NCBI GenBank assembly: GCA_045631325.1
Contig: JAZQUO010000060.1
Span: 10,274 to 74,273 of the forward strand
Source: Oscillospiraceae bacterium
GTDB lineage: Bacteria > Bacillota > Clostridia > Oscillospirales > Ruminococcaceae
Length of the DNA stretch: 64,000 nt
Direction of reading: 5' to 3'
The notes beneath the pieces were generated by a model. That model had not been told where the DNA came from and did no database searches. It saw nothing but the letters and a program-made list of their open reading frames with translations. A program made the translations under genes and the position numbers. Below, piece after piece: positions 45,032 to 61,571 of the stretch (positions within the stretch are counted from its first letter, which is position 1; each line of letters begins with the position of its first letter).

Positions 45032-45039
45032 ACGAACTG

Positions 45040-45278: not shown

Positions 45279-45345
45279 CTAAAACAAAGGCGAAACGGAA
45301 GTGGTTTAAATGAAAAAAGAAATTTAGGAAGGGAAGGAGGTTCCT

Positions 45346-47128: not shown

Positions 47129-47171
47129 ACCGATCCGCCGCCGGATGAGATAACAGAGAAAGGAAAAGAAA

Positions 47172-47789: not shown

Positions 47790-47829
47790 TTTTTAAAACA
47801 GTTAATTTTGAAAGGAGAAATTATTAATT

Positions 47830-48909
47830 ATGTCAGTTAATCTTGCAAGCAAATATGCGAACGAACTTGCGCAGGCATTTACCCAGAAATCTTTTGTTGA
47901 CGGAATTGCCTGCAAGGACTATGAATTCACCGGGGTAAAAAATCTTAAGGTTTACACCGCGGTTTCCCAGGAACTTAACGACTATAAACGAAGCGGTACC
48001 AACCGTTACGGCGAACCGAAAGAGGCACAGGACACCGTTCAGGATATGATCGTTGAAAGAGACAGATCTTTTTCCATCACTGTGGATAAAGGCAACAATG
48101 CCGAACAGATGGGCGCAAAGGAAGCTTCCAAAATCCTCAACATTGAAATGAGCGAACAGGCTATTCCCGAAATGGACAAATATGCGCTTCGCAAATTCAT
48201 CGATTATGCGGGTACGGTTGAACCCATTGCGGAAGAACCCACCGAAGAAACCATTGTCAAAATGATTTCCGACGGCATGGTTAAAATGGGCAACAAGAAA
48301 GTTCCTGCCGAAGGAAGATATATTTTCATCGGTTGGAGCTGGTTCGGAATGCTTCGACTTTCCAAGCAGTTCATCGGAGTTGAGGCTCTTGCCAAAGAAG
48401 CTCTTGTTAAAGGTGCGGTCGGTACTTTTATGGGCGCACAGGTTGTCACTGTTCCGGACGATTACCTTATGAAAGGAGAAAACAGAGCTTATTTCCTTAT
48501 TGTTTATAAAAACTCCGTTCTCCAGCCGAAAAAGGTTCAGGATTATTTCATCAAGGAAAATCCTGCGGGCATCAACGGCGCGCTTATTGAAGGCAGATTT
48601 ATCTATGACGCATTTGTAATCGGCGCAAAATGCGACGGTGTTTATGCGGCGGTTGAGGGCGACAAAGTTCAGGCTGTTCCCGAATTTGCGCTTTCCGGAA
48701 AAAATCTTGTTGTAACTTCTGCGGGTGCAAAGAAAATTCGTGTTACCACCGACGGCACCGACCCCAGATTCAGCGATACCGCTTTTGAAACCACCAGCGG
48801 CGGCAGCGTTGCTCTTTCCGAAGGCAGTTATACCGCAAAGGCTGTTGCTTTCAGCGACGAACTTTTTACTTCCGCAGTTGCGGTTGACGAAAAAAGAACC
48901 GTTGCTTAA
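47830..48909 (+). CDS. major capsid protein with C-terminal Ig-like (chitobiase/hexosaminidase C-terminal-type) decoration domain
   Basis: The N-terminal region SKYANELAQAFTQKSFV..DYEFTGVKNLKVYT..LNDYKR..NRYG..DRSFSITVD resembles N4-gp56-type capsid proteins. The C-terminal IRVTTDGTDPRFSDTAFETTSGGSVALSEGSYTAKAVAF is a CHB_HEX_C-like module. Confidence 0.6.
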   Translation: MSVNLASKYANELAQAFTQKSFVDGIACKDYEFTGVKNLKVYTAVSQELNDYKRSGTNRYGEPKEAQDTVQDMIVERDRSFSITVDKGNNAEQMGAKEASKILNIEMSEQAIPEMDKYALRKFIDYAGTVEPIAEEPTEETIVKMISDGMVKMGNKKVPAEGRYIFIGWSWFGMLRLSKQFIGVEALAKEALVKGAVGTFMGAQVVTVPDDYLMKGENRAYFLIVYKNSVLQPKKVQDYFIKENPAGINGALIEGRFIYDAFVIGAKCDGVYAAVEGDKVQAVPEFALSGKNLVVTSAGAKKIRVTTDGTDPRFSDTAFETTSGGSVALSEGSYTAKAVAFSDELFTSAVAVDEKRTVA

Positions 48910-48996
48910 TTTTAATAATTTGCCGGGGACAAAAAATTCTTGTCCCCGGTTTTAAAAAAGCAGACAAAGATTATTTTTTTCGGAAGGAGAAAGTTT

Positions 48997-49473
48997 ATGG
49001 AAAACAGCAGAAATATTTTTGAACCGGGTTTTTTGAAAAATCCGGAAGAAAAGAAAAAAGAAGAACAGCCGAAGGCAGAAGAAAAAGCAGAAACCACCAT
49101 TGCGGAACTTCGGAACAGATATGCGGAAAAAGTCCGCGAGCAATATGAAAGCGAAGCAAAGAAACTTCGTGAAGAAAGGGATTCTGCTCTTCGGGAAAAC
49201 TGGATTCTTCAGCAGCAGGCGGAAGCAAACCTTCCGGAAAGACTTGCGGCCGGAGGAATCAACGGCGGCGCGACCGAAACTGAAATTTCGAAAATTAGAG
49301 CGGAATATCAGGGAAACAGAAACGATATCCGCGAAGATTATTCGGAAGAATTAAACAAAATCGGCGAGGAAAGCAGAAAAGAACTTTTTGAAAATGAAAA
49401 GGATTTCAACAAGGAATGGCTTGAGTATCTTCTTGGAATTGCGAAGGCGGAAGAAACGGGAAAATTTAAATAA
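48997..49473 (+). CDS. phage hypothetical protein (charged, helical)
   Basis: GGAAGGAG RBS precedes the ATG at 48997. It lies in the structural block. Confidence 0.45.
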   Translation: MENSRNIFEPGFLKNPEEKKKEEQPKAEEKAETTIAELRNRYAEKVREQYESEAKKLREERDSALRENWILQQQAEANLPERLAAGGINGGATETEISKIRAEYQGNRNDIREDYSEELNKIGEESRKELFENEKDFNKEWLEYLLGIAKAEETGKFK

Positions 49474-49485
49474 AGGGGTGGTTTT

Positions 49486-51522
49486 ATGCCAAAGATTCTG
49501 AATTTCAGGGCAGGAGCGGAACCGGCGAAAAAGGTTCTTGAAATCACATCCTTTGCAGGGATAGATCTTTCGTCATCGCCTGCGGACGTTGACAGAAGGA
49601 GAAGCCCGGACGCGCCGAACATGATGCCGGATTCGCTTGGAAACCCGGTTAAAAGACCGGGTTTTGAACTTTTCGGAAAGTTTCTGGGAAGATTGAACGG
49701 AAGTTTTCAGTTCGGAGAACAGAGGATCATCCACGCAGGAAAGGCGCTTTTTAACGAAGAAAGGCAGATCTGGGACGGAATGGCGGACGAAATATCCTGC
49801 GGGATCGTAACAGGAAACAGGCTTTTTATCTTTGACGGGCAGGAAGCGCTTTGTTTTGACGGTGAGCACGTTGTTCCCCTTTGCGATATCGCGTATGTTC
49901 CGACGGTGCTCATTTCCAAAAACGCGGACGAAGCGGAAAAGGAAACGGTGCTTAAAGGAGACGGAACGAGCACGGAATTTGTTCTTCCGGAAGAACCAAA
50001 GGAGATTCTTTCCGTTACAAAAGGCGAAACCGACATCGATTATACATATTCCGACGGGAAAATCGTTTTTAAAACCGCACCGGAAGAGGGAGCGGAAATC
50101 AAAGTCAGAATGATTGTTGCAAAGGAACCGGGCGGAAGCGCAAAAGAGGAATTCAACCTCATTTCTTCCAGATGGAAAGAGAGCTTTCTTTGCGATACCG
50201 GAACGGAAAAGAAATTCAGCCTTTCGAAAGGAAAGCTTTTCGGAAACGTGAGAGCCTGGATCATGGACGAAAAAGGCGAAATGCAGGAAAAGACAGAAGG
50301 AACGGATTTTTCCGTTGACAGAGAAGCGGGAAAAATCGAATTCTTTGAGGCTGTTCCAAAAACTCCAGTCACCGGGCAGGATAACCTTGTTATTGAGGCG
50401 GGAGCTTTTTTTGAAGGTTACAGAGAAAGAATAAACAATTGCCGAAGGGGAATTGCATTCGATTCCGGCGGCACAAGCACAAGAATCTTCCTTTGCGGAA
50501 ACAAGGACGAACCTAACAGGGACCATTGGTGTGCGGCAGGAGACCCGACATACTGGCCGGACACATATTATTCCGAAATCGGAAGCGCGAAATCCGAAAT
50601 AGTCGGTTATTCCGTTATAGAAGGATATCTTGCGGCGCATATTTCACCGGCTTTTGACGGAAGGAGCATTGTTCTTCGTACGGCGAACGTTGACGAAGAA
50701 GGAAACGTCAGCTTTCCTATTATAAAGCATCTTCAGGGCGAAGAGGCGGTTGCTCCTTATTCTTTTGTATATATGGAGAAAGAACCACTTTTTCTTACGA
50801 AAAGAGGGGTTTACGCCATTACTGCGGAGGACGTTTCCGGCGAGAAATACACCCAGAACAGAAGCTTTTATATCAATAAGGTTCTTTGCAATGAGGATAT
50901 TGAAAATGCTTTCTGCGGGAAATGGCGGCAGTTTTACGTTGTTCTGACCAAAGGTAAAATGTTCCTTCTTGACACAAGCCAGAAGAGTTACCAGAGGGGC
51001 GAACCTCTTTCGACTTTCCAGTATGAATGTTACCTTTGGAAGGATTTTGAGGCGAGGATTTTTTGGGAACAAGGCGGAAAACTCTTTTTCGGGGACGAAG
51101 AGGGAAACATCTTCCGGTTCACCGAAGGAAGATATTCCGACAACGGAAAAGCGATCAATGCTTACTGGACGGTTCCGGATTTTTCCGGAGAAAGTTTTTG
51201 GAGGAACAAAACGATTCGCACCGTTGCGATCCAGGCGGCGGCAGTTCCGCAGAACGAAGTCCGGCTTGAAGTCCGGGAAAACGGATTCTGGAAGGTGCTC
51301 AAAGAATGGAAAGGCAAGATTTCCTATTTCGCATGGGACAGATTCAGCTGGGACGATTTTTCATGGAGCGGAAACAGCGATTACAGGACCATTACTCTTA
51401 AAACAAAGATAAAGAAATTCGATAAAGCGGGATTCAGAATTGTCGGCGACAGCAGAGACAGAGGGTTCGGGCTTTACGGATTTGCGATTGAGTTTGAAGA
51501 GAACGACAGATTCAGGAAATGA
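49486..51522 (+). CDS. large phage structural protein (678 aa), function unknown
   Basis: It is tightly packed in the structural block with an RBS of GGGGTGG. No family was recognised by eye. Confidence 0.5.
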   Translation: MPKILNFRAGAEPAKKVLEITSFAGIDLSSSPADVDRRRSPDAPNMMPDSLGNPVKRPGFELFGKFLGRLNGSFQFGEQRIIHAGKALFNEERQIWDGMADEISCGIVTGNRLFIFDGQEALCFDGEHVVPLCDIAYVPTVLISKNADEAEKETVLKGDGTSTEFVLPEEPKEILSVTKGETDIDYTYSDGKIVFKTAPEEGAEIKVRMIVAKEPGGSAKEEFNLISSRWKESFLCDTGTEKKFSLSKGKLFGNVRAWIMDEKGEMQEKTEGTDFSVDREAGKIEFFEAVPKTPVTGQDNLVIEAGAFFEGYRERINNCRRGIAFDSGGTSTRIFLCGNKDEPNRDHWCAAGDPTYWPDTYYSEIGSAKSEIVGYSVIEGYLAAHISPAFDGRSIVLRTANVDEEGNVSFPIIKHLQGEEAVAPYSFVYMEKEPLFLTKRGVYAITAEDVSGEKYTQNRSFYINKVLCNEDIENAFCGKWRQFYVVLTKGKMFLLDTSQKSYQRGEPLSTFQYECYLWKDFEARIFWEQGGKLFFGDEEGNIFRFTEGRYSDNGKAINAYWTVPDFSGESFWRNKTIRTVAIQAAAVPQNEVRLEVRENGFWKVLKEWKGKISYFAWDRFSWDDFSWSGNSDYRTITLKTKIKKFDKAGFRIVGDSRDRGFGLYGFAIEFEENDRFRK

Positions 51523-51761
51523 GGTTGGTTTTATTGGATTTTTTGATTGAGGCGGTTTTGTTTTTTGTTCTTGGTTTTCTTTTTGGAAAGGAACGGAAAA
51601 AAGAAATTGTTCCGAAGACGGAGGAAGAGGAAATCCCTTTGTTTTCAGATTCTTTTTCAGTAACAAGAACAAAGAACCCGACCGCATTGGAACAATGGAT
51701 TAATATTATGAATTATTGCGGCGAAAGCCAGACGGAGGGAGATTATGAAGAAACCGAATAA
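51519..51761 (+). CDS. small phage membrane protein
   Basis: ATGA overlap with the upstream stop. N-terminal TM is LVLLDFLIEAVLFFVLGFLFG. Confidence 0.4.
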   Translation: MRLVLLDFLIEAVLFFVLGFLFGKERKKEIVPKTEEEEIPLFSDSFSVTRTKNPTALEQWINIMNYCGESQTEGDYEETE

Positions 51762-53301
51762 GATTACGCCGGAGAAAATCTGGGAGGAATATCTTCGGGG
51801 CGAGGATTTTAACAGGCAGACGCAGCTTCACGAAACAGTTGAACGAAACGAGGATTTTTATGAGGGAAATCAATGGAAGGGGCTTAACGCGCCGGACCTT
51901 GAAAAACCGGTTATCAATATTTTTAAGAGGGCAGTAACATATCTCGGAAGCCAGATTGTCAGCGACGATATCGGAATAAGCCTTGAACCTTTCGGAGAAA
52001 ACGGCGAAAATTCCCGAATCTGTAAAATCCTTGGAAGGGAAATTGAAAGAATCGTTGAAATCACAAAGGCAAAGACAAAAAACAGGGAACTTATCAAGGA
52101 TGCGGCAATTACCGGCGACGGAATTTTTTATGCGTGGTTCGATCCCGAAAAAGGAAAAAACGGCGAAATTGAACTTGAGAATCTTGAAAATGAAAAAGTT
52201 ATTTTTCGAAATCCTTTTGAACAGGACGTTCAGAGGCAGAGAAGCATTATTGTTGTAAAAAGAATGCTTCTTGAGGACGCAAGGGAGCTTGGAAAGGCAA
52301 ACGGACTTTCTGAAGACGAAATCCGCAGCATCAGGCCGGATTTTTACGGAAATTATTCCGCGGAAAAAGAAGAAAGCGGACAGAGTCTTGTTACCGTTTT
52401 ACTGCGTTTCTGGAAGGAGGACGGGACTGTATGGTTTTCCGAAAGCACAAAGGATATTTTTATCCGGAAGCCGGTTAAAACCGGGGCGAAACTTTATCAT
52501 ATTGCATGGATGCCCTGGGAAAAAAGGCGCGGAAATTACCACGGAAGCGCGGTTATGACTCCCTATATCCAGAACCAGATTTACGTCAACAAGATGTGGG
52601 CGCTTGCGATGGTTTACAGTTCAAAAATGGCATGGCCGCAAAGATTTTATGATGCGACCAAAATCCGCGGAAATCTTTCCAACAAGGTCGGACAGGCAAT
52701 CGGTGTTGCGGGCGACCCGAAAAGCGCGGTTTATTTTGATGCGCCCGCGGGAAATATGAGCGCGCAGGTTCTTGAACTTGTTGAAAGGACTATCCGATAT
52801 ACAAAGGAAAGCCTTGGCGTAAGCGATGCGGCTCTTGGCAACATTAAACCGGAAAACACTTCCGCAATTATTGCGGCTTCGGAACAAAGCGCGGCGCCTC
52901 TTATTTTCCAGAAACTTGCTAATCACCAGCTTTGGGAAGACCTTATACATATTTTTCTTGATATTATCGGGGAGATGTACGGAAAAAGAGAGATTTTTTG
53001 CGAGAAAATTCTTTCCGGCGGAGAAAAGGTTTTTGAAAAAACGGAATTTGATTTTTCAAAAATCGATTACGATTCTTTTGATATAAAAATCAACATCGGA
53101 AGCGCATCTTACTGGAGCCAGCTTATGCAGGTTCAGACGATGGATTCTTTCTTTAAAAACGGAATTATCGAAGACGCGATCGTTTACCTTGAACATATTC
53201 CGGAAGGTTATGTTTCCGGAAAGAACGAACTTATTAATGATTTGAGAGAAAGAAAAAAGAACCTTTTTGCGGAAAAGAAAGGAGAACTGAATGGAACTTA
53301 A
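51745..53301 (+). CDS. phage portal-like protein
   Basis: The N-terminal NEDFYEGNQWKG block is typical of portal proteins (NxxFYxGxQW). The size is 518 aa. Confidence 0.55.
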   Translation: MKKPNKITPEKIWEEYLRGEDFNRQTQLHETVERNEDFYEGNQWKGLNAPDLEKPVINIFKRAVTYLGSQIVSDDIGISLEPFGENGENSRICKILGREIERIVEITKAKTKNRELIKDAAITGDGIFYAWFDPEKGKNGEIELENLENEKVIFRNPFEQDVQRQRSIIVVKRMLLEDARELGKANGLSEDEIRSIRPDFYGNYSAEKEESGQSLVTVLLRFWKEDGTVWFSESTKDIFIRKPVKTGAKLYHIAWMPWEKRRGNYHGSAVMTPYIQNQIYVNKMWALAMVYSSKMAWPQRFYDATKIRGNLSNKVGQAIGVAGDPKSAVYFDAPAGNMSAQVLELVERTIRYTKESLGVSDAALGNIKPENTSAIIAASEQSAAPLIFQKLANHQLWEDLIHIFLDIIGEMYGKREIFCEKILSGGEKVFEKTEFDFSKIDYDSFDIKINIGSASYWSQLMQVQTMDSFFKNGIIEDAIVYLEHIPEGYVSGKNELINDLRERKKNLFAEKKGELNGT

Positions 53302-54058
53302 TAAAATCACACAGGAAGAAGTTGAAGAAAAAAGCGTAGTCGGAATGGCGGAAGTTCCGGGACTTCCTGCAGAAGAGATGCAGTACAGAATCGAACAGCT
53401 TGTTCGCGAGATTGCTATTCCGAAGATAAACGAAGTTATTGAATATATTGCCGGAAAAGTTGCGACGCAGGAGGATCTTGAAAAACTTCTTATTGATTCC
53501 GGTTCCGTTACTTCCGTTTTCGGAAGGGCGGGAGCAGTTGTTGCAAAAAGCGGAGATTATACCCCGGAAATGGTCGGCGCGGCGGCAAAAAGCCACGCAA
53601 AGGAACATTCTTCTGAGGGCAAAGATCCGATTAAAGCAAAAGACATCGGAGCGGCGGAAAAGGAACACGTTCACGGAAATATTACCGCGGACGGAAAAAT
53701 CGGAAACGCAAACGGGATGGTCCTTATGACCGGGATCGGCGGAAAAATTGAAGCAAAAGCAAAGGCGGATTCCGGATTTGTTCTTCCGGCGGAGGTTGTT
53801 CCGGTTACCGGGGAATTTACCGCACAGAACAACAAAATTTATTTCGGAAACGATATTTCCGATTTTATCTTTAATTGCGACAGCGCAAAGGCCGCGGATT
53901 GCAGAGGATTTGTCACTTTCGGGACACCCGGAAGAATTGAACTTAAAGGATTCGATTTTGTTGACGATTCCGACGGAATTGCAGAAGCGGCGGCAGGAAG
54001 CAGATGGGAATTCGACCTTTCCTACGGCTGTCTTATTATTCGGAAAAGGAGTGAATAA
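53291..54058 (+). CDS. phage fibre or appendage-like structural protein
   Basis: SHAKEHSSEGKDPIKAKDIGAAEKEHVHGNITADGKIG resembles the His-containing repeats of phage tail fibre proteins. AAAGGAG RBS. Confidence 0.4.
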   Translation: MELNKITQEEVEEKSVVGMAEVPGLPAEEMQYRIEQLVREIAIPKINEVIEYIAGKVATQEDLEKLLIDSGSVTSVFGRAGAVVAKSGDYTPEMVGAAAKSHAKEHSSEGKDPIKAKDIGAAEKEHVHGNITADGKIGNANGMVLMTGIGGKIEAKAKADSGFVLPAEVVPVTGEFTAQNNKIYFGNDISDFIFNCDSAKAADCRGFVTFGTPGRIELKGFDFVDDSDGIAEAAAGSRWEFDLSYGCLIIRKRSE

Positions 54059-54061
54059 AGA

Positions 54062-55231
54062 ATGGAGCTTTTGAGATTTACAGTAAGGAATCAGAGACTT
54101 TCCGGCGGGCGAATCCGTCTTGTTTCCGATTCCATAGATTACGTTGAAGCTTTCTTTGATTTCCGCACCGAAGATTGGAAAGGACTTTCAAAATGGGCGC
54201 ATTTCAGCAAAGGGGAAGTTACTTATGACATAAACCTTGCTGAAGACAGAATCACAAAGGATATGTACCTTAACCTCGAAGAGGGCACTTGGGAAGTCAA
54301 ACTCCACGGAACAGATTCCGCAGGAACCATGAGGATCACCACCGACACGGCCTTTGTTATTGTTGAGGCTTTTGGGGAAGGATTTAATCCTCTTCCGGAG
54401 ATTCCGCTTTCCGCAGCGGAACAGATCGACGCAAAAGCACAGCTTGCTCTTGAAACGGCGCAGGGAGCTGTCGGAACGTCTTCCGAAGCGGTTGAGATTG
54501 CAATGGAAATCAAACGCAGAGCGGACGAGGGAGAATTTGACGGAAAAGACGGAGAAACCGGAAAGACCCCGGAAATTCAGATCGGAAACATTGAAACTCT
54601 TCCCCCGGAAGCGGAAGCAACGGTTTCCATCGGAGGAACGGCAGAGAAACCTATTCTTAACTTCGGAATTCCGAAAGGAAACACCGGCGAAGACGGAATC
54701 GGAATCGAAGACGTTGAAACGCAGATGAGCGCCGAGGACGGAGGTTTTAACGTTCTTACAATCAGGCTTACTGACGGAAGAACTTTTTCCTGGGCGATTA
54801 TGAACGGACACAAAGGCGAAACCGGAAAAGCGGGAAGTCCCGGTTTAGTCTGGGCAGGAGAATGGACCCCGGAAGGAGATTACAGAGCGATCCGCGACGG
54901 ACAGGTTTCGAGAGACGTTGTTATGTATAACGGTTCCGCATACGTTGTTGCGGTAAATAACCCTGCGCCGGTTATGGGAATTATCCCCGAAGGGGACACC
55001 ACCGGAAGATGGGCGCTTCTTGCGGCAAAAGGCGAAAAGGGCGAACCCGGAGAAAAGGGCGAAGAAAAAAGAACGGTTGCAGTTGACCTTTCCGGTTTTG
55101 AGACCGAAGGAAAGATTGTTGAAACCTATTCGGACGGGACTTCGGTTGAATACAGTTTTGAATTCGATTCCGAAGGAAATCCGACAAAAATTACGGACAG
55201 CGACGGAAACGAAACTGTTCTTACCTGGTAA
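54062..55231 (+). CDS. phage fibre protein with short collagen-like Gly-X-Y tracts
   Basis: Gly-X-Y tracts are GKDGETGKTP, GNTGEDGIG, GHKGETGKAGSPG and GEKGEPGEKGEE. Confidence 0.55.
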   Translation: MELLRFTVRNQRLSGGRIRLVSDSIDYVEAFFDFRTEDWKGLSKWAHFSKGEVTYDINLAEDRITKDMYLNLEEGTWEVKLHGTDSAGTMRITTDTAFVIVEAFGEGFNPLPEIPLSAAEQIDAKAQLALETAQGAVGTSSEAVEIAMEIKRRADEGEFDGKDGETGKTPEIQIGNIETLPPEAEATVSIGGTAEKPILNFGIPKGNTGEDGIGIEDVETQMSAEDGGFNVLTIRLTDGRTFSWAIMNGHKGETGKAGSPGLVWAGEWTPEGDYRAIRDGQVSRDVVMYNGSAYVVAVNNPAPVMGIIPEGDTTGRWALLAAKGEKGEPGEKGEEKRTVAVDLSGFETEGKIVETYSDGTSVEYSFEFDSEGNPTKITDSDGNETVLTW

Positions 55232-55243
55232 AGGGGTGATTTG

Positions 55244-56074
55244 ATGGGATTTGATATTTTATCTTTTGCACTTGGAAAAGCAGCGGGTAAAAACGCAGGA
55301 GGTTCTTCCGAAACTGTTATTTTTGCGGAGCAGACTTTAGGTTTTGAATACAGCGAAGGCTTTGGAGCTTACTACGCAGGATTTAACACTTCGCCTTTTT
55401 CACTTGTTGACGGACAGGAATATATCGTAGTCTGGGACGGAATTGAAAACAAAAGAACAGCTTTTGCTTTCACAAACCCAAGAGACGGTACTTCCTGCGT
55501 TGCTTTGGGAAATCCGCTTGTAACAGGCGGAGCGGCGAACGAAGATAAATTTGCGGTTGTTGAGGATAAAACAAATGACAATGCTTATTTCTTTTCCCTT
55601 GAAACAAGCGCAGAACATACCGTTAAAATTTATCAGAAAACAAATGGTGGCGGTGGAGATAGCGGGGATACTTCAAAAGAATATTCAATTCAAGAAGGCA
55701 GTTTTGAAGCAACCTCAAAGCAAATGACAGTCAGCCACGGCGGAAACAAAATTCCGGATATCATTATTGTTTCGACAACTAATGTACCTACGGCAAATAT
55801 TTTGTACCTTGCGTATGGTTTCAGTCAGGCTATGCTTGATAAACTTGGTGGGGGTTATTTAAGCAAAGTCAGAGGTCTTGCACCCACAGGCGGTGCTATG
55901 GTTATGAGCACAAATGTCGGAATAGATAAAGTTTCTTCTACGGATATGTATTCTACATATGGCGGAATAAGAAATGTAACAGACAAAACTTTTACCGTTG
56001 GAGGTGCATCTGCAATGGGATACCTTAATGTTGGCAAAGGTTACAGCTATACGGCAATTTTCGGTCTGACTTAA
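55244..56074 (+). CDS. phage structural or receptor-binding candidate, unknown family
   Basis: It follows the fibre gene. Its codon usage (CAA, ACA, TCA present) differs from neighbouring genes. Confidence 0.4.
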   Translation: MGFDILSFALGKAAGKNAGGSSETVIFAEQTLGFEYSEGFGAYYAGFNTSPFSLVDGQEYIVVWDGIENKRTAFAFTNPRDGTSCVALGNPLVTGGAANEDKFAVVEDKTNDNAYFFSLETSAEHTVKIYQKTNGGGGDSGDTSKEYSIQEGSFEATSKQMTVSHGGNKIPDIIIVSTTNVPTANILYLAYGFSQAMLDKLGGGYLSKVRGLAPTGGAMVMSTNVGIDKVSSTDMYSTYGGIRNVTDKTFTVGGASAMGYLNVGKGYSYTAIFGLT

Positions 56075-56091
56075 CGGAAAGGAGCGATATT

Positions 56092-56304
56092 ATGAAGCTT
56101 TTATGCGTTATAACGATTCTTAATATCGTTATGCTTCTTTTGAATGTGTGGCTTCGGATCGACAGCGAGAAAACCCTTGATGAAATTAAAGAACGGACAT
56201 ATACAGAGGGAGCGGGAACCGGAGAAGAATCATTCCACCGTGCCTGCGGCAACGGTCTCCATTCCTTTGACAAGGGAGGTAAATTATGGGCAGACGAAGA
56301 ATGA
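56092..56304 (+). CDS. small phage membrane protein
   Basis: GGAAAGGAG RBS. N-terminal TM is LLCVITILNIVMLLLNVWL. Confidence 0.4.
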   Translation: MKLLCVITILNIVMLLLNVWLRIDSEKTLDEIKERTYTEGAGTGEESFHRACGNGLHSFDKGGKLWADEE

Positions 56305-56630
56305 TGCTTGGAGGGGACAAGGCTCTTGCTGAATTCAGGCATATAAACGGACTTAACAAAGCGGTATGGATCGAAGAAAACGGAAGAAAGATTTTTGATC
56401 CGGAGATTTTTAAAATCCGCAGAAACGAAAAAATTGTTTTTTACATAAACGCGCCGATGGGAAACGGAATTATTAACCTTAACGGGAAAGAGATTTTTAA
56501 GAAAAGGGGAAATGTTTCTTGCGAATTCCCGGTTAAGAAAAACATTCTTATAACGGCGAAAAGGAAAACATATTCTTCGGAATACGGATTTATGATAACG
56601 GATTACGTTATTGAAATTACTGAAAGATAA
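56286..56630 (+). CDS. phage hypothetical protein
   Basis: AGGGAGG RBS. It overlaps the upstream gene by 19 nt. Confidence 0.4.
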   Translation: MGRRRMMLGGDKALAEFRHINGLNKAVWIEENGRKIFDPEIFKIRRNEKIVFYINAPMGNGIINLNGKEIFKKRGNVSCEFPVKKNILITAKRKTYSSEYGFMITDYVIEITER

Positions 56631-56644
56631 GGAGGTGGAGAAAA

Positions 56645-57019
56645 ATGACTGTCAAGGAATGTTTTGAAGAGGCCATAGGTTTTCTTCCGGAACTTCCGGA
56701 AGAAAACCCGGAAATCAAAAAGTTTGCGGTAAACTGGTGCAATTTTTTGCTTTCGGAAACTTTCAGAAACGAAAATTTTTACAGAGAGGCAAACAAAATT
56801 GAAAAGCTTGCCGAAATTCCGAAGCTTGGGAAAATTGAAGACGAGATTCCATATAATGAGGAACTTGTGAAAACGGCTTTTCCATACGGAATGGCAAGAT
56901 TTGTTTTCAGGGAAAACGGCGATATTTCCGGAAGCAGGGAATTTTATCAGCTTTACGTAATTGCGCTTTCGGAAGCAACTCCGGTTGTTTTAAGGGAGGT
57001 TGAAGATATTTACAGATGA
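56645..57019 (+). CDS. phage hypothetical protein
   Basis: GGAGGTGGAG RBS. ATGA overlap with the downstream gene. Confidence 0.45.
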   Translation: MTVKECFEEAIGFLPELPEENPEIKKFAVNWCNFLLSETFRNENFYREANKIEKLAEIPKLGKIEDEIPYNEELVKTAFPYGMARFVFRENGDISGSREFYQLYVIALSEATPVVLREVEDIYR

Positions 57020-58425
57020 ACAGACCACTTAAAACAAAGGACGAACTTAAAGAAGAAACAAGAATGGTTCTTGAGGAGGAGCAGGAAAATTTTGAAAGGG
57101 CGGCGGAGAAAACCGCCGCCAAAGAGGAAAGGGAAAGAGAAACAGGAAGAATTGTTCGGGGAATACTTGAAAAGCCTCTTGGAAAAGCAAAATTTACTGA
57201 CCCAGAACCGGTTTTGTTCAGCGAAGAGGACCGGGAAAAAGACGAAAAAAGCCCGCTTTGGTATAAAGAATTTGAAGAGAATTTAAAGGAAGAAAACGAA
57301 AAAGAAGCGGAAAGCAACGTTAAAAACATTTCGCAAAAAGAGAGCAAAAAGGAAGAAACAAAGTATCTTTCGCCTATGGTAAGGGCAAGCAATCAAAGGT
57401 CAAATAATATATATAACGCATATAAATCCGGAGAAGAATGGCTTATGAGCGAGGATGACGAAGACCTTATAAAAGGGATTATCAACAATATACGCTCGGC
57501 TATAGGAACGGGAGTTGAGGAACTTGCTTATGCTATAAACGATTTTGCGCCCCGGTATAAGCCGGCAAAAGACGTTCTTGAAAAGAACACGGCAGGAATA
57601 ATAAGCGAAAAAGCACAAGAACAGTTCAAAAACGCGAAAGAGAAAGGAGCGGGAGAAAACCTTGTAAACGGACTTGACATATTATCGAAGAACGCGGGTT
57701 ACAATATTTTCGGAGCGAAAGCAGGAAATTATATTGAAGCATTGAGCGAAGGATTCGGAGAATACAAAAAGCTTCGTGAACAGGGTTACAGCAAGGAAGA
57801 AGCGATAAACAAAACTCTTCTGAATATCGGTATTTCGTTTGCGGAAGAGAAACTTTTTGATAAAGCGAATGAGTGGACAAGCAATAAAATTAAATCCGTA
57901 TTAGATTCATATACGAACGGAAAAGCTTTGTCTGCAGGTGGATGGAACGACAAAAGAAATCGGCTGGACAAAATCGAAAGGCGTGATATAATGGAAACAC
58001 AAACAGGTTTTACATGTTTTCCGGATGACTTGCAAAATGAATATGCCAAAAAGATAAAACCAGAAAAATACATGGATAACGGTGTCGAAAAAACGTATTT
58101 CGATGTTGCAATGCATGGAACGCCGCAGGCAGTTGGATTTTGGTCGGAAGAAATGAATATGTCGCCAGGCTTTTTAGCTGAAATAATAACACACAATTCA
58201 AAATACAAAAAAGGTCAAAAAGTTCGTTTGCTATCCTGCAATACAGGTGAAAAAACAGGTAATGGGTATTGTTTTGCTGAAGAATTGGCAAATATAATGG
58301 GAGTTGAAGTAGAAGCACCAAATAAAGATTTATATATGTATCCAACCGGTAAGATGAAGATAGGCTTTTTTAATGAGGGTGAAATGGTTTTGTATAAACC
58401 AAATGACAGGAGGAGATTCAGATGA
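57016..58425 (+). CDS. polymorphic-toxin-like phage protein: charged N-terminus, conserved central region, variable C-terminal domain with His...Cys motif
   Basis: The central segment NLVNGLDILSKNAGYNIFGAKAGNYIEALSEGFGEYKKLREQGYSKEEA is duplicated at 58825. The C-terminal VAMHGTP-x35-VRLLSCNTG...VEVEAPN resembles clan CD (CPD/C80-like) His-Cys order. Confidence 0.55.
   Translation: MNRPLKTKDELKEETRMVLEEEQENFERAAEKTAAKEERERETGRIVRGILEKPLGKAKFTDPEPVLFSEEDREKDEKSPLWYKEFEENLKEENEKEAESNVKNISQKESKKEETKYLSPMVRASNQRSNNIYNAYKSGEEWLMSEDDEDLIKGIINNIRSAIGTGVEELAYAINDFAPRYKPAKDVLEKNTAGIISEKAQEQFKNAKEKGAGENLVNGLDILSKNAGYNIFGAKAGNYIEALSEGFGEYKKLREQGYSKEEAINKTLLNIGISFAEEKLFDKANEWTSNKIKSVLDSYTNGKALSAGGWNDKRNRLDKIERRDIMETQTGFTCFPDDLQNEYAKKIKPEKYMDNGVEKTYFDVAMHGTPQAVGFWSEEMNMSPGFLAEIITHNSKYKKGQKVRLLSCNTGEKTGNGYCFAEELANIMGVEVEAPNKDLYMYPTGKMKIGFFNEGEMVLYKPNDRRRFR
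57656..57803 (+). repeat. 148-bp direct repeat, copy A (inside the full-length toxin gene)
   Basis: Identical at 147/148 positions to 58825..58972; the single mismatch is t/g in gacaTatt versus gacaGatt. Confidence 0.95.
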
Positions 58426-58730
58426 AAGCTTTTGGGTGTTTAAAAGGAATGCCGCATGAGGATTGTAATGAAGAGTTTAACGATTATAAAAAGTATAAAA
58501 ATACAATTCCTAAAGAAAAGGTAATAGAATATCTGGAATCCGACAAGGTTGTAAGGTGTTATGGATTTATGGTATCGAGGGATATGTTTACCGGAGAAAA
58601 AATAGAATGTGGTTTATTGGAAGACGCCGAATATATAATCCCTATGGAATTTCTTCATTATTACAAAAACTATGATATAGGAATCCCTTACGATTATGAG
58701 GAATACCTCAAAAAAATAATTGATTATTAA
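58422..58730 (+). CDS. candidate cognate immunity protein
   Basis: ATGA start/stop overlap with the toxin gene. It is 102 aa, acidic and AT-rich. No family was recognised. Confidence 0.45.
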   Translation: MKAFGCLKGMPHEDCNEEFNDYKKYKNTIPKEKVIEYLESDKVVRCYGFMVSRDMFTGEKIECGLLEDAEYIIPMEFLHYYKNYDIGIPYDYEEYLKKIIDY

Positions 58731-58768
58731 TTATTTTTAAATGAAGGTATTTTTATAGAACCAGGAAA

Positions 58769-58779
58769 CACAAAACGTG
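58769..58779. promoter_or_regulatory. CAC-N5-GTG site (late-region copy 1)
   Basis: aacacaaaacgtgca. The following ..cgatagg parallels 59942..59967. Confidence 0.35.
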
Positions 58780-58791
58780 CACATTGCGATA

Positions 58792-58813
58792 GGCGGCGGA
58801 AAAAACCGCCGCC
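58792..58813 (+). terminator. GC hairpin ggcggcgg-aaaaaa-ccgccgcc (copy 1)
   Basis: 8-bp GC stem. The same sequence recurs at 59899..59919. Confidence 0.55.
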
Positions 58814-58823
58814 GGAGTTTTAG

Positions 58824-59360
58824 CAAAACCTTGTAAACGGACTTGACAGATTATCGAAGAACGCGGGTTACAATATTTTCGGAGCGAAAGCAGGAAATTA
58901 TATTGAAGCATTGAGCGAAGGATTCGGAGAATACAAAAAGCTTCGTGAACAGGGTTACAGCAAGGAAGAAGCAGCGGCAATTTCTCTTGGAAAAATCTCT
59001 TCGGAATTTCTTTTTTCAAAAGCAGACGATTATCTTTTGAAAAACAATACATTGAATAATATTGAAAAAAATAATAAAAGCAATATAATTAATATAGATG
59101 TGCAGTTTTTCGCAGAAAAAGATTTAATGAATCAATCTTCCAATGCTTTAAAACGAGGAATAAGAAGTCTTACAAAAGAAATAAAATTACATGAAGAAAA
59201 AATTAAAAACCCGAAAAACTATGATAGAAACTGGGACACAAAAAGTGAAATTGCCAAGAAAGGTCTTCTTAAACATTGGGAAAAAGAGATAAAAAATCTG
59301 AAAGATTCAATAAACAACAGAATCGAAGAATTGTCAAAAAGGGGAGATTACAATGACTGA
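58824..59360 (+). other. orphan (displaced) toxin C-terminal cassette without its own start
   Basis: The frame opens directly after TAG at 58821..58823. The first 49 codons repeat the central region of the 57016 protein, then diverge into a different ~125-aa C-terminal domain (..KIKNPKNYDRNWDTKSEIAKKGLLKHWEKEIKNL..). There is no RBS or ATG at its 5' end. Confidence 0.6.
58825..58972 (+). repeat. 148-bp direct repeat, copy B (5' end of orphan cassette)
   Basis: See 57656..57803. Confidence 0.95.
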
Positions 59361-59571
59361 TTATGGTTTTCAGTTTATTATTGAAAGAATTTTAAAAAAT
59401 GCATATGAATCTCTTAAGGATGCAGAAGAGAACCCGGGTGTTGAATACTATGAAGGCCATAAAATAGCCCATTATGAAATCCTGGATATCATAAAAGCAG
59501 AGCTTGAAGTTCGGGAAGAAGATTTGAAAGAATACGGTCTTGATATTGACTTGGAACAAGTGTTTTTGTAA
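59353..59571 (+). CDS. candidate immunity protein for the orphan cassette
   Basis: It overlaps the end of the orphan cassette by 8 nt. It is a 72-aa acidic helical protein. Confidence 0.4.
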   Translation: MTDYGFQFIIERILKNAYESLKDAEENPGVEYYEGHKIAHYEILDIIKAELEVREEDLKEYGLDIDLEQVFL

Positions 59572-59608
59572 TCGCGCCAAATTCGTGACCGAAGGAGGAA
59601 ATGAAGAA

Positions 59609-59770
59609 GTGATTGATATTTGGAATCTTAGAGATTATTATGGTAGGATTAAAATTACTACATTAAACGGAAAAGAACACATAGGAACTTTTTGCTGTAT
59701 TTTAGAAAAAGACAAAGATGAAAAATTTATTGATGATATTCTTTATCTCGATTGTGAGGACGGAACATGA
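59609..59770 (+). CDS. small hypothetical ORF (GTG start)
   Basis: GAAGGAGG RBS lies ~10 nt upstream of GTG 59609. The longer 76-aa ORF start lacks an RBS. Confidence 0.3.
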   Translation: MIDIWNLRDYYGRIKITTLNGKEHIGTFCCILEKDKDEKFIDDILYLDCEDGT

Positions 59771-59850
59771 GGAATGTTTAAATGTGAAATAAAAAAGATG
59801 GAAACGATTGATTAAATGAGCAAGCCAATAGTTTTTTTAAAACACAACAA

Positions 59851-59861
59851 CACAAATTGTG
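59851..59861. promoter_or_regulatory. CAC-N5-GTG site (late-region copy 2)
   Basis: aacacaaattgtgtt. Confidence 0.35.
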
Positions 59862-59898
59862 TTATAGACTGAAAACAGCACTTTGAACCTTGAAAAGA

Positions 59899-59919
59899 GG
59901 CGGCGGAAAAAACCGCCGC
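59899..59919 (+). terminator. GC hairpin ggcggcgg-aaaaaa-ccgccgc (copy 2)
   Basis: Same sequence as 58792..58813. Confidence 0.55.
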
Positions 59920-59941
59920 AATATATTTTACAAACAAACAA

Positions 59942-59959
59942 CACGAAATGTGCTATATT
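59942..59959 (+). promoter_or_regulatory. CAC-N5-GTG site (late-region copy 3) overlapping an extended -10 (TGCTATATT) upstream of the lysis genes
   Basis: cacgaaatgtgctatatt. The caaacaaacaacacg flank matches the reverse complement of 45048..45062. Confidence 0.4.
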
Positions 59960-59980
59960 TACGATAGGAAGGAGAAGAGA

Positions 59981-60277
59981 ATGGAGAACGAAGAAATTGC
60001 AAGGGAACATCAGCTTATTTTTGACCTTGCAAAATCGAACAAAAGGAGAATTGATAACCTTGAGGAAGAACAGAAAGAACTGCGGAATTTAACAAACGCG
60101 GTGAGCCAGATGGTCGTTGAACAAAAGAATATGCGCGATGATCTTGCGGAAATGAAAAATGACGTTAAACAGATAAGAGAAAAACCCGGCAAACGTTGGG
60201 AAACGGCGGCGGATAAAGTGCTTACACTTGTTATTGCGGCGGTTGTTGCCTGGATGCTGGGGCAGATTGGACTTTAA
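59981..60277 (+). CDS. XhlA-like lysis-associated protein (coiled coil + C-terminal TM)
   Basis: GGAAGGAG RBS. It has a coiled-coil N-terminus and a C-terminal TM (VLTLVIAAVVAWMLGQIGL). It lies immediately upstream of the holin and amidase genes, as in PBSX-type lysis cassettes. Confidence 0.5.
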   Translation: MENEEIAREHQLIFDLAKSNKRRIDNLEEEQKELRNLTNAVSQMVVEQKNMRDDLAEMKNDVKQIREKPGKRWETAADKVLTLVIAAVVAWMLGQIGL

Positions 60278-60289
60278 GGAGGGAGAACT

Positions 60290-60583
60290 ATGAACATTAT
60301 AAAAAATATCAACTGGAAGGTAAGAATCAGAAATCCGATTTTTTGGGCAACGGTTGTTCCTGCGGCGGTGAGCTTTATTTATTGTGTGCTCGGCGCTTTT
60401 GGAATTGTTCCGGCGCTTACCGAAAATATGGTGCTCAACTTTGTGGGAGCGGTTATCACCATGCTCACAACTCTCGGGGTGCTTGTTGACCCGACCACTT
60501 CGGGAATCAAAGACTCGGCACTTGCTATGACTTACGATTCACCGAGAAAGGACGATTTTTCCGAAGAAGGTTTTGAAGAATGA
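60290..60583 (+). CDS. phage holin (phi LC3 / LL-H-like)
   Basis: The N-terminus is NINWKVRIRNPIFWATVVPA. It has two TM helices, is 97 aa, and sits directly before the endolysin. Confidence 0.7.
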   Translation: MNIIKNINWKVRIRNPIFWATVVPAAVSFIYCVLGAFGIVPALTENMVLNFVGAVITMLTTLGVLVDPTTSGIKDSALAMTYDSPRKDDFSEEGFEE

Positions 60584-61293
60584 AAGCAATTATCGGAATT
60601 GATGCGGGGCACGGCGGAAGTTCTTCCGGAACGTATTCAGTAAACACCGTTTACGACGGACTTTTTGAGAAAGATTTGGCTCTTGAACAGGCGCTTCTTG
60701 TTGAAAAACATCTGCTTCGGAACGGGTTCGGAGTTATTATGACAAGGCGCAGCGACAAAAATCCGGGAAACGTAAACGATCGGGCAAAAATTTGCGTAAA
60801 CGGAAACTGCAATTTTGCGCTTTCGATTCATTTCAACGGATTCGGAACAGAAAGCGCAAACGGAACGGAGGTTTTTGTGCCCTATCAGGAAAAAATTGCG
60901 GAAGTCGAAACGGGATTTTATAATGTCCTCGGGAAATATTTCAAAAGAAGGGCGCCTTTTGCAAGAAGCAATAATTATTATAATCGGAACGAAATTTTCG
61001 ATAAGAAGCTGAACGCCGGAAAAAGGCGTTTTGATGGGTTTTCCGGGGAAAAGGATTATTTCGGTTTTGTAAGAAATTGTTGGAAAAACGGAATTTCCGC
61101 GGACCTTTTGGAAATTTGTTTTCTGACCAATCCGAAGGATTTTAAAACCTATATTGAAAATAGGGAGGAAATTGCGGCAGGAATTGCAAAAAGCATTGTT
61201 GAAGGTTTTGGTGAGGAATTTGTTTTTGAAGAAGAAAAGGAAAAAATTGCCGCAAAACCAAGAATAAGGAGAAAATTTGACGTTTTAAACTGA
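60580..61293 (+). CDS. N-acetylmuramoyl-L-alanine amidase (Amidase_3) endolysin
   Basis: IGIDAGHGG, ALSIHFNGF and NGTEVF blocks. ATGA overlap with the holin gene. Confidence 0.8.
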   Translation: MKAIIGIDAGHGGSSSGTYSVNTVYDGLFEKDLALEQALLVEKHLLRNGFGVIMTRRSDKNPGNVNDRAKICVNGNCNFALSIHFNGFGTESANGTEVFVPYQEKIAEVETGFYNVLGKYFKRRAPFARSNNYYNRNEIFDKKLNAGKRRFDGFSGEKDYFGFVRNCWKNGISADLLEICFLTNPKDFKTYIENREEIAAGIAKSIVEGFGEEFVFEEEKEKIAAKPRIRRKFDVLN

Positions 61294-61337
61294 ATAAAAA
61301 TCGGATTCGGAGAAAAAATAATCCCGAGGTGATTAAA

Positions 61338-61571
61338 ATGAGTCCGAAAAAACAAAAGACGCCGATACCTCATCACGGAAAAAAGGTTAACGATTGGGAA
61401 ACTTTGCGCCCTTATGTGGAAATGGCGGCGCCGCCTCTTCGGGATAATATTGCCGGAGAAGGGGAAGCAAACGCAAAAATCGACCCGAAATGGGGATTCG
61501 GTTATCAGGCAGAACTTTCCGGCAACAATTCAACCTTTTCGCCGGAAGAAAAAAGCCGTGCTCAAAAATGA
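61338..61571 (+). CDS. hypothetical protein (cargo or end of element)
   Basis: GAGGTG RBS precedes the ATG at 61338. The stop lies inside the terminator hairpin. Confidence 0.35.
   Translation: MSPKKQKTPIPHHGKKVNDWETLRPYVEMAAPPLRDNIAGEGEANAKIDPKWGFGYQAELSGNNSTFSPEEKSRAQK

Follow-up and report, generated by a model that had tools for sequence, protein, structure and literature searches.

What kind of locus carries a gene for a 469-aa protein and, downstream of it, a second copy of 148 nt from the middle of that gene which lacks a start codon and continues in frame into a completely different C-terminus? We address this question for a 64,000-nt stretch of DNA from an Oscillospiraceae bacterium (GenBank assembly GCA_045631325.1, contig JAZQUO010000060.1, positions 10,274–74,273; hereafter, the window), where the arrangement lies in the right part of a phage-like gene cluster. 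An initial annotation had read it as a polymorphic toxin locus, with a main toxin and displaced orphan tips that each have their own immunity gene, and the predictions of this reading that can be tested on sequence are all borne out. We consider it likely that the locus is a polymorphic toxin–immunity island filling an accessory slot between the last structural gene, which codes for a 124-aa protein (p124), and the lysis cassette of a ~17-kb, podovirus-like Oscillospiraceae element under the control of an SOS-type repressor. In what follows, the C-terminal domain of the full-length toxin is referred to as CT1 and the open reading frame (ORF) behind it as imm1; the C-terminal domain of the orphan and its neighbor are CT2 and imm2, and the two copies of the 148-nt repeat are called stubs. 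Feature coordinates are collected in Table 1, and designations such as L001 and P0008 are our own labels for related loci and homologues, respectively.

A repeat search over positions 55000–61500 finds one long direct repeat, in which 147 of 148 nt are identical, as first described; the sole mismatch (T57680 versus G58849) exchanges Ile for Arg. A match of this kind is not due to chance. The first copy lies centrally in the 469-aa protein (residues 214–263), with a divergent C-terminus after it, and the second opens directly behind a TAG codon (58821–58823) and has neither a start codon nor a ribosome-binding site (RBS). The earliest in-frame start candidate is TTG 58911, for which there is no good Shine-Dalgarno sequence. 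The unrelated C-terminus that follows in frame, estimated at ~125 aa in the initial annotation, extends for 128 aa, and both overlapping small ORFs, the 102-aa imm1 and the acidic 72-aa imm2, are found as they had been described (Table 1). The cassette region was also said to be AT-rich, and this is evident in a GC content of 0.28–0.36 in the tips and small ORFs (CT1 0.36, imm1 0.31, CT2 0.28 and imm2 0.33) compared with 0.41 in the N-terminal part of the toxin gene and 0.44 in the element.

The hallmarks of polymorphic toxin systems (sensu Zhang/Aravind 2012; Jamet & Nassif 2015) that can be assessed from sequence are all present at this locus: (i) one N-terminal region is joined to many unrelated C-termini (at least nine types, with breaks near residues 263 and 296); (ii) the tips come from a pool that is shared with other toxin families (CT1, CT2 and Ntox50); (iii) the small downstream ORF co-varies with the tip (imm1 with CT1, imm2 with CT2 and four further pairs) and (iv) there are orphan cassettes that begin with a homology stub, with arrays in L002, L005/L011, L034 and L035.

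The first two of these are most evident from the 264 homologues of the 469-aa protein that were found in a search of 5.8 billion proteins, among which local BLAST locates the breaks in homology. One class has residues 1 to ~263/296 in common with the toxin, followed by an unrelated C-terminus. In P0023, the tip on this N-terminal scaffold is Ntox50 (PF15542), a known RNase toxin domain. A second class consists of hundreds of proteins of 500–577 aa that share only residues ~256/312–469 with the toxin (42–54% identity) and have Phage_min_cap2 (PF06152) or Phage_Mu_F (PF04233) domains at their N-termini; the MuF-type genes are located directly after SPP1-type portal genes. In the four further pairs that co-vary, tips of types d, e, c and GGIRITGKSAHF are coupled to ORFs of 100, 64, 75 and 69 aa, respectively, and all six pairs are kept together across loci, expressed and silent alike. 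A tip matching DUF6883 (Pfam, E about 1e-12) also occurs on the same N-domain, with a 57-aa ORF after it (L013 12065–13579, L017 11304–13085 and P0137), and may be viewed as a further candidate toxin–immunity pair.

The initial annotation noted that the N-terminal region does not look like MuF, and we arrive at the same view. The N-domain (residues 100–263) has no MuF match in Pfam at E-values up to 1, and hhalign profile comparisons give probabilities of 0.5% against MuF1 and 0.2% against MuF2. The toxin is likewise without LXG, WXG or PAAR domains in Pfam (LXG and WXG100 are also absent in NCBIfam), and without the domains of CdiA (TPS, FHA and VENN) and Rhs (YD repeats and PxxxxDPxGL) in Pfam. 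Because the defining N-terminal domains of MuF, contact-dependent inhibition (CDI), Rhs and LXG proteins were each tested and are absent, we do not assign the toxin to any of these groups. In a set of 1.84 billion proteins, the N-domain family amounts to no more than 29 clusters (50% identity), including two whose proteins have 1693 and 2262 aa. No signal peptide is seen in the toxin sequence, and a protein search with the leader and acidic region (residues 1–99) gave two matches only, probably because the composition of this segment is low in complexity.

Two observations on the scaffold may be added here. The end of the stub (57766–57803 and 58935–58972) codes for GFGEYKKLREQGYSKEEA, which gives a sub-threshold match to DUF7218 (E 1.6e-4, 22 bits versus a cut-off of 27) and also to PHROG 4974; homology to MuF2 proteins starts at this stub end, about residue 256. 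In L005 (5865–7113) and L011 (15037–16285), the primary toxin gene is split into ORFs of 50 and 370–390 aa by a frameshift in an A-run just past the hairpin that is described below. The split is present in independent JGI, ENA and NCBI assemblies, and reflects either genuine disruption of the gene or programmed slippage.

Structure searches had been proposed for both C-termini, and give a CPD-like (cysteine protease domain) fold for CT1 and no informative Protein Data Bank (PDB) match for CT2. CT1 has no match in Pfam, either alone or over the 21 members of its alignment, and none in sequence and profile searches of the PDB. The AlphaFold2 (AF2) model built from the 21-sequence alignment has a predicted local distance difference test score (pLDDT) of 82 and a predicted template modeling score (pTM) of 0.80. 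The top eight Foldseek matches to this model in the PDB are CPD structures from Vibrio cholerae MARTX and Clostridioides difficile TcdA/TcdB, with E-values of 4e-3 to 6.5e-2, probabilities of 0.92–1.0 and template modeling (TM) scores of 0.42–0.47 (best match: E 4e-3, probability 1.0, TM 0.46). They are followed by gingipain, legumain, CHAT and CED-3, all of clan CD. Two candidate catalytic residues, H367 (AMHG, after model strand 69–72) and C408 (LLSC, after strand 110–113), are invariant in 21 of 21 sequences, with the His before the Cys. This moderate match suggests that CT1 has a clan CD (CPD/caspase-like) Cys-peptidase fold.

CT1 is found on three scaffolds besides that of the window, MuF1, MuF2 and P0012, and imm1 homologues lie directly 3′ of it on all three (L009, L007 and L010, respectively), with 52–62% identity overall and 52–54% in the MuF loci. 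A copy of imm1 that is 96% identical is also retained without CT1 in L002 (8674–8982), where only the last 33 nt of CT1 are left upstream. The 102-aa ORF is thus a putative cognate immunity protein of CT1. In L002, three to four paralogous 69-aa immunity-like genes follow a 697-aa toxin.

The core of CT2 starts near position 59100 at an invariant QFFAEKD motif and is basic (pI 9.3–9.5). In our alignment A1, the invariant positions are FAEKD, H73, H101, W102, K104, E105 and R116. The AF2 model is a helical hairpin (pLDDT above 90 for residues 51–120), for which Foldseek finds only generic helical hairpins in the PDB (best E 0.59). In BFVD, one match is significant (E 4.9e-6, 36% identity), to a siphovirus ‘minor capsid protein’ of 401 aa, from which we conclude that CT2 also circulates on head-protein scaffolds; it occurs on an LGEAGIDALL scaffold as well. 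The start motif itself (59100–59120) has the invariant form (L/M)Q(F/L)FAEKD. On several short contigs (P0129 and P0132–P0134; L037–L039), ORFs of 84–103 aa open exactly at this motif (MNLQLFAEKDL...) with imm2 homologues next to them, so that the motif may mark the edge of a domain or a site of processing.

Two lines of evidence bear on the status of the orphan. CT2 is intact and evolves under purifying selection, with ratios of non-synonymous to synonymous substitution rates (dN/dS) of 0.10–0.14 among three independent orphan copies (0.03–0.17 for imm2), which argues that the orphan is not simply decaying. In addition, the orphan frame is 88% identical over all 178 aa to the C-terminal part of P0008, a full-length 394-aa protein in L001. 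The gene order there is p124, a toxin composed of N-domain, stub and CT2, a 72-aa ORF that is 99% identical to imm2, a small ORF and xhlA, and this layout is what recombination between the two stubs of the window would produce. Homologues of imm2 come after CT2 in at least eight loci (L001, L002, L005/L011, L028, L035, L037–L039 and L040; 53–99% identity), and L010 also holds one. The two proteins are complementary in charge (pI 9.3 for CT2 and 4.3 for imm2), and the 72-aa ORF is a putative immunity protein of CT2. Arrays of orphans are larger in some relatives: L002 has two, L005/L006/L011 have three behind the primary gene, and those of L034 and L035 are more complex still, with some orphans derived from a different scaffold. 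The small ORF that follows imm2 in the window (59609–59770) ends at a TGG to TGA change (59768–59770); it is 98% identical to its counterpart in L005/L011 and the remaining frame is still recognizable. A 67-aa homologue of this ORF comes after imm2 in L001.

The stubs carry a record of exchange. Their 5′ edge, at toxin nt 641, is the same in the window, L002 and L005. Within a locus, the copies differ at 1 nt (window) or 4 nt (L002, and the L005 primary versus its first orphan, L005_P and L005_O1), whereas stubs of different lineages differ at 13–22 nt, except for the closely related window and L002 (3–4 nt). In the window and L002, the stub linked to CT2 is of the resident type. In L005, by contrast, the CT2-linked stub is nearer to the primary stub of L001 (8 differences) than to its own neighbors (13–14). 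This disagreement between the histories of stub and tip is a signature of recombination, by crossover or gene conversion, at the stub.

These observations suggest the following scheme. In the product of the expressed gene, the N-terminal part would be specific to this family and made up of a leader, an acidic region and the helical N-domain; a linker would join it to the exchangeable effector CT1, for which imm1 would be cognate. The silent cassette would comprise the junction block, a GC hairpin, the TAG codon, the stub, an alternative linker, CT2 and imm2. Homologous recombination between the stubs would delete CT1–imm1 and join CT2 to the resident N-terminus, and much the same result could be reached by gene conversion with a related element as donor. 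Imm2 would presumably be expressed apart from the silent CT2, where it could shield the cell from CT2-armed relatives.

A further conserved border element of the cassettes, not mentioned in the initial annotation, is the hairpin found 12 nt before the orphan stub (H2), which also occurs within the toxin gene (H1) and, with a shorter stem, before xhlA (H3). The pattern GGCGGCGG-N6-CCGCCGC has three sites in the 64-kb window compared with 0.01 expected. In every related locus, the hairpin covers the AAE[KR][ST]AA motif of the primary gene and also borders each secondary cassette on its 5′ side, always with a perfect stem, which measures 8–10 bp in all cases other than the 7-bp pre-xhlA copy of the window and comes in five sequence variants. 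Five of the eight core pairs are fixed by Ala codons and the other three depend on wobble positions. In an alignment of 24 sites from 14 loci (A4), whose members are related and whose within-locus copies are not independent, double-sided changes number 6, 7 and 4 at the three pairs (17 in total), with single-sided changes absent and a single cell unpaired. Covariation reaches a score of 0.258, compared with 0.075 for shuffled alignments, none of 500 of which reaches 0.258, and with 0.02–0.04 for controls slid along the sequence. Given the relatedness of the sequences and the dependence of copies within a locus, we count at least five independent compensatory events.

Three types of junction follow the hairpin in secondary cassettes. 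In type A, which is that of the window, the hairpin is joined via GGAGTTTTAGC to toxin nt 641, out of the reading frame of the hairpin. Type B is an in-frame fusion to about nt 706 (L002 at 9044, L040 and L034), and in type C the hairpin is followed by the whole rest of the toxin gene (P0006 in L002; L030). A junction identical to that of the window (H2 plus GGAGTTTTAG) precedes orphans in L002 and in L005/L011. An in-frame fusion by recombination between H1 and H2 was considered for the window and rejected, since the type A junction reads AAEKTAAGVLAKPCKRT and then a stop, and in-frame type B junctions are confined to relatives; long-range translational bypass between the hairpins is implausible over more than 1.6 kb. 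Rfam holds nothing comparable to the hairpin and gave only a sub-threshold match to isrK across the hairpin and stub (22.8 bits versus a gathering threshold of 50), which we take as chance. The hairpin is, by position, a marker for the start of the secondary copies and, in the expressed gene, for the border between leader and cargo, and most likely serves as a recombination or insulation element of the cassette system. Candidate roles include a recombination site or hotspot, an insulator or terminator for silent cassettes and an RNA stability or processing element.

The junction blocks contain a second type of motif. The palindrome AACACRAAWYGTG occurs six times in the window compared with 0.8 expected, with one site counted on both strands. 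Two copies (44992–45004 and 45266–45278) bracket a canonical promoter in the repressor–terminase intergenic region (TTGACA 45003–45008, a 17-nt spacer and TATAGT 45026–45031). The remaining copies are located in the junction block before the orphan (58767–58779) and on either side of H3 (59849–59863 and 59940–59952). The palindromes are probably operator sites, and their placement points to common regulation of the cassette junctions, the lysis genes and the main control region of the element. In a promoter and terminator scan of the region, promoter-like sites are about as frequent as expected (9 versus 9.7), and H3 alone stands out as terminator-like.

The initial annotation placed the locus inside a phage element. 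A phage-like gene cluster is indeed present; however, it spans only ~17 kb (positions 44300–61300), is podovirus-like and has no integrase. Up to ~44.1 kb, the genes of the window belong to the host and are of ordinary types (Fe-ADH, serine dehydratase, DUF4130 and radical SAM). The element then begins on the minus strand with a CI-like repressor (44301–44915; HTH_3 plus Peptidase_S24), which is followed by the small and large terminase subunits, the major head protein, a 678-aa structural protein, a P22-type portal, a tail fiber, a few unknown genes, the toxin locus and the XhlA-like, holin and amidase genes, with an extracytoplasmic function (ECF) sigma factor beyond. The portal is ~25% identical to that of the Bacillus podophages Page and Pony. 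No integrase, replication or tape-measure gene was found between 44.3 and 61.3 kb, and tblastn with the toxin against 50,697 phage records gave no match.

A scan with the portal protein (one genome per species) recovered 26 related loci, all in Oscillospiraceae or Clostridia metagenome-assembled genomes (MAGs) and nearly all from ruminant gut. The p124 gene, whose product has no match in Pfam or PHROG, lies directly 5′ of the toxin or cargo gene in 26 of the 26, including those with an empty slot. The slot, bounded by p124 and xhlA, is hypervariable: L012, L026 and L031 have nothing in it, which indicates that it is accessory, and in the other loci it measures 1.8–8.7 kb. In L023 (5783–12271), L024 (12024–20690) and L033 (3960–13160), it is taken up by one protein of 2162, 2888 and 3066 aa, respectively, and in L029 (2841–5648) by a single protein of at least 935 aa, truncated where the contig stops. 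Two of these large proteins have domains of polyvalent proteins, ART-PolyVal and LPD3 in L024 and LPD3 in L033.

L011, L012 and L013 share the host flanks of the window, with radical SAM and DUF4130 genes on the left, where the contig reaches that far, and a 309-aa gene and the ECF sigma factor on the right; the flanking proteins are only 34–98% identical. In L040, the right flank differs. The ~17-kb cluster may be a defective or domesticated particle cluster similar to PBSX or to a gene transfer agent (GTA). Taken further, this would imply a domesticated PBSX/GTA-type particle at one chromosomal site in at least four related Oscillospiraceae assemblies, with the slot as its cargo-exchange system, the leader and N-domain as the segment that loads the effector, and the hairpin as the site of capture, insulation or swapping. 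We regard this extended proposal as doubtful, but if it were correct, the locus would represent a new trafficking class of polymorphic toxins with a cassette-border element of its own.

How the toxin reaches its target is suggested by context. The most likely route is that it is loaded into a particle and released into the target cell with the DNA, because the slot is shared with polyvalent-type proteins, the toxin has no signal peptide, its translation is coupled to that of p124 and its tips are shared with MuF head proteins. Otherwise, the toxin could be freed at lysis.

Several points weigh against the polymorphic toxin reading. The agreement of CT1 with CPD folds is moderate only (TM 0.46, E 4e-3), and CPD domains are classically self-processing modules rather than toxins. 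We nevertheless read CT1 as an effector peptidase because it forms the end of the protein, with no further domain behind it that could be released, and is paired with an ORF of its own; Zhang et al. (2012, PMC3482391) likewise regard caspase-like domains at the very C-terminus of polymorphic toxins as probable toxins. CT2, for its part, is a helical hairpin without a recognizable catalytic fold, and neither imm1 nor imm2 has a usable match in Pfam, PHROGs or NCBIfam or belongs to a known Imm family. The toxin and the small ORF likewise have no usable match in these collections, and the PDB yielded nothing to sequence searches by single proteins or by a profile. The N-domain shows no detectable relation to known trafficking domains, and the dispensability of the slot indicates that the toxin protein is cargo and its N-terminal part not a core virion protein. 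The element may be unable to form infectious particles, given that it is without integrase and replication genes. Recombination between the hairpins would yield no functional fusion in the window, where the type A junction is out of frame. Finally, the initial annotation had proposed a search for the swapped allele in the population. No near-identical strain carrying it was found in exact DNA-pattern scans of JGI metagenome contigs and IMG/VR, which gave no match apart from three chance matches that code for nothing related.

Of the other explanations, the one that we take most seriously, although we would not expect it to be correct, is that the slot proteins are short ‘polyvalent proteins’, i.e. 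injected anti-host or anti-defense effectors that aid establishment of the DNA, with the small ORFs protecting the producer and an arms race driving the variability. The 2–3-kaa proteins with ART-PolyVal or LPD3 domains in the same slot fit this proposal, as do the 1693- and 2262-aa proteins with the N-domain and the MuF fusions that share CT1 and CT2, which are head proteins; for polyvalent proteins, injection is predicted (PMC5512222). Silent tips with protectors and an imm1 without its toxin (L002) are, however, typical of kin-discriminating toxins and not expected for anti-defense effectors, and tips of the Ntox50 RNase type are classical toxins. The two explanations overlap and differ in biological purpose only. 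It is unlikely that the orphan cassette is a relic left by an earlier exchange of tips and now without any use, with the 148-nt identity merely reflecting how recently this took place. The missing start codon and RBS, the TAG and terminator-like hairpin directly 5′ of the orphan and the nonsense mutation in the neighboring small ORF would be expected of a relic, but the selection on an intact CT2, the conservation of imm2 with a strong RBS, the concerted evolution of the stub with the resident primary gene alongside a greater divergence of CT2, and the retention of the same junction in lineages whose stubs differ at 13–16 nt would not. Expression of the orphan in its own right, as a 149-aa protein starting at TTG 58911 that forms with imm2 a toxin–antitoxin-like addiction or abortive module and so stabilizes the element, would be compatible with the purifying selection seen in CT2. 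In several assemblies the 149-aa ORF has been called as a gene, and a promoter-like TTGAAA-16-TATAAT (11 of 12 matches) is present at 59062–59089. This site lies downstream of the TTG, though, and the number of such sites is at chance; the TTG has no usable Shine-Dalgarno sequence, and the constraint on the 5′ sequence to match the primary gene is better explained by recombination homology. We therefore think self-expression quite improbable.

There is still less to recommend the idea that the 469-aa protein is a virion-associated cell-wall hydrolase or structural protein, in which a C-terminal peptidase aids DNA entry and the tips reflect host-range adaptation. The gene does stand among late, tail-proximal genes beside the lysis cassette, and Cys peptidases are common at the C-termini of virion-associated lysins. 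A CHAP/NlpC-type lysin is nonetheless rejected for CT1 on account of its clan CD fold and residue order (His before Cys, each after a β-strand), and the remaining evidence makes the hydrolase very improbable: other tips are an RNase toxin domain and a helical hairpin, each tip has a protector gene and the slot is empty in some relatives. As for the repeat being an artifact of collapsed or duplicated reads, which the initial annotation had listed as a possible refutation, the near-perfect identity of the two copies is all that speaks for it. The flanks differ on both sides and one base differs between the copies. Independent assemblies of related elements (L002–L004, L005/L006 and L011) contain this stub too, again with its 5′ edge at toxin nt 641, and the same architecture and junction are seen in ENA, JGI and NCBI MAG assemblies that are independent of one another. 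For these reasons, an assembly artifact is scarcely conceivable.

If the locus is read as a polymorphic toxin island, the closest known systems are the MuF toxins, with which tips and immunity genes are held in common. Like the toxin described here, MuF toxins are phage-encoded among late or structural genes, lack a signal peptide and combine a variable C-terminal toxin with a small ORF (Jamet et al. 2017, PMC5576092; Zhang et al. 2012, PMC3482391), and the phage head is where they are predicted to be packaged (PMC3482391). MuF1 and MuF2 proteins carry CT1, with its immunity gene behind it, and CT2 is found on the ‘minor capsid protein’. The differences are that the scaffold in the window is not MuF, that the element is podovirus-like and without an integrase, and that there are orphan cassettes and the hairpin; ‘orphan’ as a word is absent from the MuF toxin paper (PMC5576092). 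MuF genes are also located directly 3′ of the portal gene, whereas five genes separate the portal (51745–53301) from the toxin in the window. In many relatives, the order is portal, p124 and toxin, with one gene between. MuF toxins are encoded by temperate phages or prophages; in the element of the window, a CI-like repressor, small and large terminase subunits (TerS and TerL), a major capsid protein, a portal, a tail fiber and lysis genes are present, and no integrase or replication genes were found in the ~17 kb.

The CDI (CdiA-CT/CdiI) and Rhs systems share the organization of the locus, in that an expressed gene is followed by promoterless tip/immunity cassettes that open with homology to the conserved part, allowing tip exchange, and immunity genes without toxins are retained. 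The proteins are unrelated, and here the setting is a phage-like element of a Gram-positive, no type V or type VI secretion system is involved, and a covarying hairpin is present at every cassette border. Polyvalent proteins, for which packaging and injection together with phage DNA have been predicted (Iyer et al. 2017, PMC5512222), occupy the same slot in relatives (L024 and L033), and the N-domain also occurs in very long proteins; the protein of the window differs from them in having one effector domain, a cognate immunity gene and orphan cassettes. With respect to CPD (peptidase C80), clan CD and ‘Tox-Caspase’ domains, these provide the best structural matches of the CT1 model and the same invariant His-Gly and Cys after β-strands, but CT1 has no sequence-level match, a TM score of 0.46 and no downstream effector to release. 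Activation of CT1 by inositol hexakisphosphate (InsP6) is implausible in a bacterial target. A functional analogy only can be drawn to Neisseria pilE/pilS and Borrelia vlsE, where one expression site is combined with promoterless partial copies that have short blocks of homology, near a nucleic-acid structure. Those systems vary surface antigens rather than toxins and have no immunity genes, and no dedicated recombination machinery was identified at the locus in the window.

To our knowledge, phage-borne polymorphic toxins have so far been known only as MuF fusions, and we know of no earlier description of arrays of orphan toxin–immunity cassettes within a phage-like element; no account of this toxin family was found in the literature searched. 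On the sequence evidence, the new features are the N-domain toxin scaffold, the orphan arrays in a phage-like element and the covarying hairpin at cassette borders, while the logic of the orphan cassettes is that already known from CDI and Rhs. A second phage-linked scaffold that uses the same pool of tips widens the known ways in which phage-like particles may transport protein weapons from one gut bacterium to another. The hairpin, which keeps its perfect pairing through synonymous compensatory changes within a coding region, offers a handle on how toxin tips are captured and exchanged. Two effector families are also provided for biochemistry, each with a candidate cognate immunity protein: CT1, a CPD-like peptidase with a dedicated putative inhibitor, and CT2, an 85-aa basic helical hairpin.

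Table 1. Features of the toxin–immunity locus and its borders (positions in the window)
Feature	Position	Strand	Remarks
p124, 124-aa gene	56645–57019	+	Left neighbor of the variable slot; stop overlaps toxin start
Full-length toxin ORF, 469 aa	57016–58425	+	Leader and acidic region 1–99, N-domain ~100–263, linker 264–311, CT1 312–469
Hairpin H1, GGCGGCGG-AGAAAA-CCGCCGCC	57099–57120	+	Toxin codons 28–35 (RAAEKTAA); dG -20.5 kcal/mol, z -4.5
Stub copy 1, 148 nt	57656–57803	+	In frame in the toxin ORF; codes for residues 214–263, ENLVNGLDILSK...GYSKEEA
CT1	57949–58422	+	C-terminal domain; candidate catalytic H367 (58114–58116) and C408 (58237–58239)
imm1, 102-aa putative immunity ORF	58422–58730	+	ATGA overlap with toxin stop; GGAGGAG 6 nt upstream; pI 4.8
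Palindrome AACACAAAACGTG, operator-like	58767–58779	+	Within the cassette junction block
Hairpin H2, GGCGGCGG-AAAAAA-CCGCCGCC	58792–58813	+	12 nt before the orphan stub; RNA fold dG -23.6 kcal/mol
Junction, hairpin H2 + GGAGTTTTAG	58792–58823	+	Conserved; ends in TAG just 5′ of the orphan stub
Stub copy 2	58825–58972	+	Start of orphan cassette; directly after TAG 58821–58823
Orphan linker (AAAISLGK...) and CT2	58974–59360	+	128-aa C-terminus, unrelated to CT1, in frame with stub copy 2
imm2, 72-aa acidic putative immunity ORF	59353–59571	+	8-nt overlap with orphan frame; strong RBS AGGGGAG; pI 4.3
Small ORF	59609–59770	+	Island member; shortened relative of a 68-aa gene in L005/L011
Terminal junction block before lysis genes	59849–59952	+	Palindrome 59849–59861, H3 59899–59919 with T-rich run, palindrome 59940–59952
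Hairpin H3	59899–59919	+	After the last cassette, before xhlA; terminator-like score; 7-bp stem
Lysis cassette: XhlA-like gene, holin, N-acetylmuramoyl-L-alanine amidase	59948–61293	+	Right border of the slot; Phage_holin_1 2.6e-25, Amidase_3 1.6e-28, PHROG 937

Two observations concern other parts of the window. The tail-fiber-like protein (54062–55231) contains collagen-like G-x-y stretches and has a weak match to RHS repeats at its C-terminus (E 8e-4). Upstream of the element, the host DNA includes two very long ORFs, at 19321–23916 (1531 aa) and 26806–33129 (2107 aa).

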